From Escherichia coli (GTDB lineage: Bacteria; Pseudomonadota; Gammaproteobacteria; Enterobacterales; Enterobacteriaceae), in NCBI RefSeq assembly GCF_041886205.1, contig NZ_CP169029.1: a DNA stretch of 64,000 nt; one strand, 5' to 3'. Under the pieces are notes generated by a model, which saw only the letters and a list, made by a program, of their open reading frames with translations, did not search any database and was not told where the DNA came from. Shown here in pieces: positions 57,496 through 57,879 of the stretch (positions are counted from its first letter, which is position 1; each line of letters begins with the position of its first letter). The position numbers and the translations under genes are program-made.

Positions 57496-57571
57496 TGGAG
57501 CGGGAAACGAGACTCGAACTCGCGACCCCGACCTTGGCAAGGTCGTGCTCTACCAACTGAGCTATTCCCGC
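57496..57571 (-). tRNA. glyY: tRNA-Gly (GCC), copy 3 of tandem array
   Basis: Reverse complement reads GCGGGAATAGCTCAGTTGGTAGAGCACGACCTTGCCAAGGTCGGGGTCGCGAGTTCGAGTCTCGTTTCCCGCTCCA; gene names by array order in K-12. Confidence 0.95.
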
Positions 57572-57606
57572 TTGGGTGGTCTGTGCCTTACAGCACTTTC
57601 AAATTT

Positions 57607-57682
57607 TGGAGCGGGAAACGAGACTCGAACTCGCGACCCCGACCTTGGCAAGGTCGTGCTCTACCAACTGAGCTATTCCCGC
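57607..57682 (-). tRNA. glyX: tRNA-Gly (GCC), copy 2
   Basis: Identical 76-nt tRNA sequence, 35-nt spacer. Confidence 0.95.
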
Positions 57683-57718
57683 TTGGGTGGTCTGTGCTTT
57701 GTAGCACTTTTCAAATTT

Positions 57719-57794
57719 TGGAGCGGGAAACGAGACTCGAACTCGCGACCCCGACCTTGGCAAGGTCGTGCTCTACCAACTGAGCTATTCCCGC
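57719..57794 (-). tRNA. glyV: tRNA-Gly (GCC), copy 1 (promoter-proximal)
   Basis: Identical 76-nt tRNA sequence. Confidence 0.95.
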
Positions 57795-57851
57795 GTACTA
57801 CTTAATTTTGCTTTCGTAATTTTCGCATTTCTGCGTCGTTACGGGAGGCGC

Positions 57852-57879
57852 ATTATACGAGAAATCTTTCCCTCTGCAA
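57852..57879 (-). promoter_or_regulatory. Candidate sigma70 promoter for the glyVXY tRNA operon
   Basis: Minus-strand TTGCAG -35 (plus 57874-57879), ~16-nt spacer, TATAAT -10 (plus 57852-57857), GC-rich discriminator GCGCCTCCC, upstream A/T tract. Confidence 0.45.

Follow-up and report, generated by a model that had tools for sequence, protein, structure and literature searches.

Three identical tRNA genes in close tandem raise the question of what kind of locus they mark: a housekeeping operon with a promoter of its own, or a site at which DNA has been integrated or recently multiplied. Such an array of tRNA-Gly(GCC) genes lies on the minus strand of a 64,000-nt stretch of Escherichia coli DNA (contig NZ_CP169029.1; the whole stretch is referred to below as the window), between orn and queG. 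The analysis described here makes it almost certain that the locus is the operon glyV-glyX-glyY of E. coli, in which a single sigma-70 promoter (PglyV-X-Y) gives rise to a joint precursor of three tRNAs, all of them the major glycine isoacceptor; its terminator leaks into the datA locus, and it carries no integrated element. The identity of the genes, the location of the promoter, the leakiness of the terminator, the RNase E site and the lack of an insertion are each shown either in this work or in the experiments cited. The locus is a textbook housekeeping operon and already known: its promoter, the processing of its transcript and its coupling to datA have each been the subject of earlier experiments.

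The tRNA-Gly(GCC) array and its promoter

Exactly three tRNA genes were detected in the window by ARAGORN, all of them on the minus strand and all predicted to encode tRNA-Gly, with the anticodon gcc at position 34 in every copy. Each copy scored 69.1 bits against the Rfam family RF00005 (gathering score 29), and an exact-string search established that the three 76-nt sequences are identical. The genes are separated by spacers of 36 nt (glyV-glyX) and 35 nt (glyX-glyY), giving the array a repeat period of 111–112 nt. A 24-nt probe representing the tRNA 3' end matched three times in the window compared with no match expected from shuffled sequences, so that the array is not a product of chance. 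The identity elements by which E. coli glycyl-tRNA synthetase recognizes its tRNA are well established, and G1:C72, C2:G71, G3:C70, U73, C35 and C36 were all present when read from GCGGGAA...UUCCCGC-U-CCA; the terminal CCA is encoded in the genes themselves. Two further Rfam matches were rejected: a match to the Y RNA-like family YrlA at 57519–57657, extending over portions of two tRNA genes, stayed below threshold (40.3 bits; gathering score 69) and was considered a tRNA-like artefact, and a match to ilvB-OMG inside queG (21 bits against 95.9) was attributed to chance.

A 1-kb query around the array was 100 % identical to the chromosome of E. coli wlxctx60 and found matches in 5425 of 5426 complete E. 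coli genomes. The annotated gene order at the identical locus is orn, three tRNA-Gly genes, an open reading frame (ORF) of 18 codons and the convergent queG, followed by nnr and tsaE, with rsgA also annotated as a neighbour. A preliminary description, made from the window's sequence, had proposed three identical 76-nt tRNA-Gly(GCC) genes on the minus strand, spacers of 35–36 nt and queG and orn as flanks; ARAGORN, Rfam and exact-string searching agree on the genes, and the annotation of the matching locus on the flanks.

The same trio of identical genes, with the same 36- and 35-nt spacers and flanked by orn and yjeV/queG, is annotated in E. coli K-12 MG1655 as glyV-glyX-glyY (b4163–b4165). 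Only five single-nucleotide polymorphisms (SNPs; positions 57997, 57902, 57892, 57886 and 57702) distinguish the window from K-12 in the 778 nt between orn and queG, and the block from the −35 hexamer through the discriminator, the tRNA genes, spacer 2, the terminator and datA are identical. Three of the SNPs (57902, 57892 and 57886) lie ahead of the −35 hexamer, within the A/T tract, which reads A8T6A in the window and A8CT6 in K-12, whilst the SNP at 57702 changes the loop of the spacer-1 hairpin from GCAA in K-12 to ACAA in the window. The features of the locus are listed in Table 1.

Table 1. Features of the glyV-glyX-glyY locus, in the order of transcription of the operon (positions are those of the window)
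Feature	Position	Strand	Basis or remark
orn	58005–58550	−	Flanking gene upstream of the array
Terminator-like hairpin followed by UUUUG, 3' of the orn stop codon, at the upstream edge of the tRNA transcription unit	57955–57994	−	Fold −18.8 kcal/mol, z −1.06
A8T6 tract (57887–57900) and G6 run directly upstream of the −35 hexamer, CAAAAAAAATTTTTTAGGGGGG, UP-element-like	57880–57901	−	A/T-rich tract at the same position in rrnB P1
−35 hexamer, TTGCAG	57874–57879	−	First 6 bp of the 28-bp block deleted in ΔPglyV-X-Y; TTGC invariant in 34 Enterobacteriaceae loci
−10 hexamer, TATAAT	57852–57857	−	Last 6 bp of the deleted block; within invariant TCTCGTATAATGCGCCTCCCGT; identical to the rrnB P1 −10
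GC-rich discriminator, GCGCCTCCC	57843–57851	−	GCGCC common to rrnB P1; transcription start probably at its 3' edge (~57842–57843)
5' leader hairpin, outer stem CGUAA..UUACG, inner CGCA-GAAA-UGCG	57815–57843	−	Fold −8.0 kcal/mol, z −2.1
glyV, tRNA-Gly(GCC), first gene of the operon	57719–57794	−	ARAGORN, Rfam, exact-string search; identical to K-12 glyV
Spacer 1: AAAUUUGAAAA, hairpin GUGCU-ACAA-AGCAC (57694–57707), then AGACCACCCAA	57683–57718	−	Fold
glyX, tRNA-Gly(GCC), second gene	57607–57682	−	ARAGORN, Rfam, exact-string search
Spacer 2, with hairpin GUGCU-GUAA-GGCAC (57583–57596)	57572–57606	−	Fold
glyY, tRNA-Gly(GCC), final gene	57496–57571	−	ARAGORN, Rfam, exact-string search
datA DnaA box 1 (ATATCCACA), overlapping the 5' arm of the terminator	57469–57477	−	Exact-string search
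Intrinsic terminator/attenuator TglyV-X-Y: hairpin 57446–57473 and U5 57441–57445	57441–57473	−	Fold −14.3 kcal/mol, z −2.0
datA DnaA box 2 (perfect TTATCCACA), essential for datA function	57402–57410	−	subDnaAbox2 primers replace exactly this 9-mer
datA IHF-site core TATCAATAGGTTA (fits WATCARNNNNTTR)	57333–57345	+	datAsubIBS primer mutates TATCAA within it
yjeV, ORF of 17 codons (MRFYFYSQAVDESGVTR)	57209–57262	−	Overlaps the queG 3' end by 18 nt; contains two DnaA-box matches
Two head-to-head DnaA-box matches: TTATTCACA 57240–57248 (−) and TCATCCACA 57228–57236 (+)	57228–57248		Sequence match
queG	56087–57226	+	Flanking gene, convergent with the array

The hexamers TTGCAG and TATAAT, 16 nt apart, had been put forward in the preliminary description as a promoter with a GC-rich discriminator and an upstream A/T tract, and all of these elements were present. 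The strongest evidence that they constitute the promoter comes from the ΔPgly1_L/R primers with which the mutant ΔPglyV-X-Y was made, and which anneal to ...GGGGGG and GCGCCTCCCG... (Kasho et al., 2024; PMC10950094). When this deletion was mapped onto the window it corresponded to exactly 57852–57879, that is, the 28 bp from TTGCAG through TATAAT. The mutant contained greatly reduced RNA downstream of the operon and initiated replication less frequently, whereas deletion of the orn promoter (ΔPorn) had no such effect, and RNA was far more abundant with primer pairs located downstream than with those upstream of the promoter (PMC10950094). Mapping of the published reverse transcription quantitative PCR primers (pairs starting at 57840–57842 compared with pairs starting at 57859 or further upstream) bracketed the RNA 5' end to 57842–57858.

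Conservation of the promoter was investigated by a species-level scan of at least 120 loci; this and all following cross-genus statements refer to the matches listed, and hence describe a sample rather than a census. The TTGC of the −35 hexamer and the block TCTCGTATAATGCGCCTCCCGT were invariant across 34 Enterobacteriaceae species in a pattern scan, while the surrounding sequence drifted. CTTGC...TTCTCGTATAATGCGC[A/T]CCCC was retained in more distant Enterobacterales, and an A-rich run and a G-run upstream of the −35 hexamer were kept across genera.

PglyV-X-Y resembles the ribosomal promoter rrnB P1 in several respects: both contain TATAATGCGCC, i.e. TATAAT with the first five discriminator bases GCGCC, in both the hexamers are 16 bp apart and the −35 hexamer is imperfect, and both are preceded by an A/T-rich tract, which in PglyV-X-Y may act as an UP element by analogy. 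They differ in the −35 hexamer itself (TTGCAG in PglyV-X-Y, TTGTCA in rrnB P1) and in the G6 run, which in PglyV-X-Y occupies the place of the proximal UP subsite. Short-lived open complexes and inhibition by guanosine tetraphosphate (ppGpp) and DksA are associated with a GC-rich discriminator and with transcription that starts 9 nt from the −10 hexamer (PMC9304144). From this rule and the likeness to rrnB P1 we infer, with good foundation, that PglyV-X-Y is of the stringent type; the preliminary description had used the same term, of which the architectural part stands as observed, and sensitivity to ppGpp/DksA would be its expected consequence. Kasho et al. (PMC10950094) expect initiation there to be lowered under stringent conditions.

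Several observations weigh against this account of the promoter. A generic sigma-70 scan called no promoter at the array; the scan demands at least four of six matches in the −35 hexamer and TTGCAG has only three, which explains its silence. Of the two promoter checks suggested in the preliminary description, prediction therefore came back empty, whilst comparison with K-12 returned an identical block from the −35 hexamer through the discriminator. The transcription start is bracketed no more closely than 57842–57858, and a search of the accessible literature found no paper measuring the kinetics of PglyV-X-Y or its control by ppGpp, DksA or Fis. Finally, the experiments cited were all performed in K-12 and not in the present strain, although the relevant sequences are the same except for the three SNPs in the upstream A/T tract.

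The weak −35 hexamer and the empty scan would also suit the proposition that TTGCAG/TATAAT is a chance match and that the tRNA genes are transcribed by read-through from orn or from some other start, and the low residual RNA in the promoter-deletion mutant was indeed attributed to read-through from Porn (PMC10950094). This is nevertheless very improbable, given that it is the loss of precisely this block and not of Porn that depletes the downstream RNA, that RNA abundance rises across the block, and that the block is invariant between drifting flanks and built like rrnB P1. A terminator-like hairpin downstream of orn folded no better than its shuffled controls (z −1.06) and is included in Table 1 because experiments locate a stop of orn transcription there, orn transcription being largely terminated upstream of PglyV-X-Y (PMC10950094). 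Even less credence attaches to the triplication being a recent duplication or an artefact of assembly rather than a stable feature. Identical repeats with a period of 111–112 nt could in principle collapse or expand, by assembly or by unequal recombination, but three copies were annotated in every complete genome sampled and are the commonest state across the Enterobacterales, and the repeat units can be told apart because the two spacers differ in both length and sequence.

Read-through into datA

Downstream of glyY the window carries the cluster of DnaA boxes and the single site for integration host factor (IHF) that characterize datA, in a region identical to K-12. The terminator TglyV-X-Y lies 23 nt past glyY, and the published ΔTglyV-X-Y primers, when mapped onto the window, remove 57453–57478 (PMC10950094). 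In K-12, TglyV-X-Y overlaps DnaA box 1 and acts as an attenuator; transcription from PglyV-X-Y that passes it runs over the IHF site ahead of initiation and prevents IHF from occupying datA, and after initiation the binding of IHF blocks the read-through (PMC10950094). Either deletion of PglyV-X-Y or insertion of a strong terminator upstream of datA abolished the timely dissociation of IHF and lowered the frequency of initiation (PMC10950094). By the same mechanism, transcription in the strain studied here would stop inefficiently at the hairpin and U5 run overlapping DnaA box 1, and the fraction reading through would cross the IHF site and keep IHF off datA before initiation, coupling tRNA transcription to the inactivation of DnaA. 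The overlap with datA is the sole functionally notable aspect of the operon's position; it was absent from the preliminary description and is already published.

The spacing between the array and datA was similar in the other loci. The interval between the array and queG was ~266–272 nt in most Enterobacteriaceae, with DnaA boxes at ~+20, +87 (perfect) and +248 after the array; the box at ~+87 was kept in nearly all Enterobacterales loci listed, and the box spacings of 67 and 161 nt persisted in Pantoea, Erwinia, Providencia, Morganella and Edwardsiella. This fixed spacing across the Enterobacterales marks the array together with datA as one module that is old and fixed.

Both of the head-to-head DnaA-box matches lie inside yjeV, and the TCATCCACA match also overlaps the 3' end of queG. 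Two more terminator-like hairpins with T-rich tails were observed on the operon strand, one abutting box 2 (57390–57404) and the other just past the IHF site (57284–57306); these could be stop points of the read-through transcripts.

Processing of the precursor and an insert in spacer 1

The predicted precursor opens with a leader of ~49 nt (57795–57843), continues with the three tRNAs, whose CCA ends are encoded, and the two spacers between them, and closes with a trailer. The leader hairpin begins at the predicted start site, and RNAalifold analysis of 21 genera predicted eight pairs, five of them with compensatory changes; the stem variants found between genera included GUAACG/CGUUAC, GUACCG/CGGUAC and GUGACG/CGUCAC.

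The two spacers are organized alike: a single-stranded A/U-rich stretch (AAAUUUGAAA) precedes a tetraloop hairpin with a 5-bp stem, and AGACCACCCAA follows. The spacer-1 hairpin has a predicted energy of −6.2 kcal/mol, and 1.2 % of shuffled sequences folded as well. Folding of individual spacers located a hairpin 10–11 nt past the CCA in ~28 out of 36, representing at least 15 genera, with approximately eight complementary stem variants (GUGCU/AGCAC, GUAUC/GAUAC, GUGUC/GACAC, GGCC/GGCC, UGGCU/AGCCA, AUGCUU/AAGCAU, UGGCG/CGCCA and UGCC/GGCA); since these variants differ and yet stay complementary, the hairpin covaries. A combined MAFFT and RNAalifold analysis of 25 spacers predicted no structure, the short sequences being mis-registered. 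The hairpin was cleanly absent from the 23–27-nt spacers of Klebsiella, Raoultella, Pluralibacter gergoviae, Superficieibacter and Kluyvera genomosp. 3, which shows that it is dispensable.

In general, RNase P makes the 5' ends of tRNAs and exonucleases trim their 3' ends, as would presumably be the case for this operon. RNase E would cut the precursor in the A/U-rich single strands just 3' of the tRNAs, which has been demonstrated for the site after glyY: 'direct entry' of RNase E has been studied with this precursor as a model, in part on a 224-nt glyX-glyY substrate (PMC4191395), and the major cut in vitro lies 1 nt downstream of glyY, at ~57494–57495 in the window (PMC4191395, PMC9841416). 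An oligonucleotide annealed to the glyX-glyY intergenic region blocked RNase E cleavage, so a single-stranded spacer is needed (PMC4191395), and cleavage after glyY also requires the upstream glyX tRNA body (PMC9841416).

The full 1-kb query around the array was at least 80 % covered in just 3797 of the 5426 complete E. coli genomes. In E. coli STK39-3-E the glyV-glyX spacer is 157 nt long, with 121 nt inserted directly 5' of glyX (retrieved locus 1382–1502), and a probe spanning both junctions of this insert was at least 80 % covered in 1607 of the 5426 genomes (~30 %). The compact and insert-bearing forms together account for 5404 genomes and 22 fit neither; copy-number variants of the compact type would be hidden within the class covered to at least 80 %. 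In E. coli OHT76-1 (NZ_CP135244.1) the probes matched only glyW (pgsA-glyW-cysT-leuZ), and no orn-glyVXY-queG locus was matched.

The insert folds as a long imperfect hairpin (−46.6 kcal/mol, z −3.6, with no shuffled sequence as good), and when the core of the enterobacterial repetitive intergenic consensus (ERIC) was rebuilt from the ERIC1R and ERIC2 standard primers, its ungapped alignment with the centre of the insert gave 33 matches over 42 positions. Relatives of 60–80 % identity were found elsewhere in 2541 genomes for which this was the best match, i.e. genomes without the glyV-glyX copy. Neither the window, where blastn gave only chance matches and the spacers are 36 and 35 nt long, nor K-12 contains the insert, and alignment places the empty site in the window between 57682 and 57685. 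The spacers of the window are themselves ruled out as an ERIC or intergenic repeat unit (IRU) repeat, having no palindrome of ~120–127 nt with an ERIC core. The insert is peculiar to the insert-bearing allele, which is otherwise identical to the window in promoter, tRNA genes, spacer 2, terminator and datA.

Among the matches listed in other genera the element has the same end point in front of a tRNA-Gly gene (...GAAGATTAA|GCGGG). It occupies spacer 1 in the E. coli species representative, Salmonella enterica diarizonae, Klebsiella oxytoca, Kluyvera and a Pluralibacter, and spacer 2 in Citrobacter youngae, Enterobacter asburiae and Silvania, while Trabulsiella carries an internally deleted form of 87 nt. 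That the end point is the same in either spacer suggests that an old insertion has been moved between repeat units by shuffling, or that the site has been targeted repeatedly. A literature search found no paper linking ERIC to glyV or tRNA-Gly; ERIC in transcribed intergenic regions is known, so the glyV-glyX insert is a new instance and not a new kind.

Island occupancy, gene context and significance

Since tRNA genes in general are frequent integration targets, with selC, pheV and leuX as examples of island sites, it could be supposed that the array is or was the attachment site of an island or prophage, and that the region holds an integrated element or its remnant. The preliminary description had taken the array to be unoccupied and had suggested looking for islands in other strains, and the results on both counts bear it out. 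Base for base, the interval from orn to queG is collinear with that of K-12; att-like repeats in the form of partial copies of the tRNA 3' end were looked for across the 64-kb window and not found, and no integrase was present among the annotated neighbours orn, queG, nnr, tsaE and rsgA. A 256-nt probe covering the orn stop codon, the promoter and the 5' end of glyV was at least 80 % covered in one place in 5423 of 5426 complete E. coli genomes, as was a 241-nt probe covering the 3' end of glyY, the terminator, box 2 and the IHF-binding site in 5425. Because both outer junctions are intact almost everywhere, glyVXY is not an island integration site in E. coli, and it resembles tRNA-linked islands only in having a tRNA gene, being without an integrase, an att repeat or a break in synteny. 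Extra genes do occur beside or inside the orthologous array in some other genera: a family-3 solute-binding protein between orn and the array in Klebsiella, Raoultella and S. enterica diarizonae, a PIN toxin pair in Providencia vermicola, a ParE/Phd pair in Photorhabdus, a LysR gene with two YdcZ genes between copies 2 and 3 in Tatumella morbirosei (retrieved locus 6745–9500) and a prepilin peptidase in a Pantoea. These kilobase-scale gaps were considered as islands and rejected, their contents being ordinary genes or toxin–antitoxin pairs with no integrase. Past or present occupancy of the E. coli array is accordingly hardly conceivable, which is a useful negative: unlike many tRNA genes, glyVXY serves no island integration in this species.

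A further proposal adds to, rather than competes with, the reading of the locus as the housekeeping glyV-glyX-glyY operon, namely that besides supplying tRNA the operon is held at its position mainly because its read-through regulates datA. The loss of timely IHF dissociation and the lower initiation frequency upon promoter deletion or insertion of an upstream terminator favour it, as does the fixed spacing between the array and the DnaA boxes across the Enterobacterales. Against it, the effects on initiation were moderate, and the authors themselves state that an additional factor is needed (PMC10950094). In all Enterobacterales sampled the order orn, tRNA-Gly(GCC) array and convergent queG is conserved, the array mostly comprising three genes (range 2–4). 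The linkage of orn with the array extends to Aeromonas (5–7 copies), Tolumonas and Idiomarina among the matches listed. The tandem array following orn in Aeromonas, which also counts against the proposal, implies that this linkage predates the Enterobacterales, and would be consistent with a tRNA array older than its association with datA. On balance the proposal has about an even chance of being correct. In some Aeromonas spp., seven tandem tRNA-Gly(GCC) genes directly follow orn.

The published work has established that the leak from PglyV-X-Y into datA helps to time the inactivation of the replication initiator DnaA, and the window holds the whole of this module unchanged. It is possible, if unlikely, that the presence or absence of the insert, perhaps together with the covarying hairpins, tunes processing or read-through and hence the coupling between the tRNA operon and datA in natural strains. 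If this were true, the dosage of the distal tRNAs and the read-through into datA would differ between strains, so that the coupling to initiation would differ in tightness, and the spacer and leader hairpins might share in the tuning, for example as structured elements recognized by RNase E. The insert polymorphism could be used to test the coupling between the tRNA operon and datA in natural strains.

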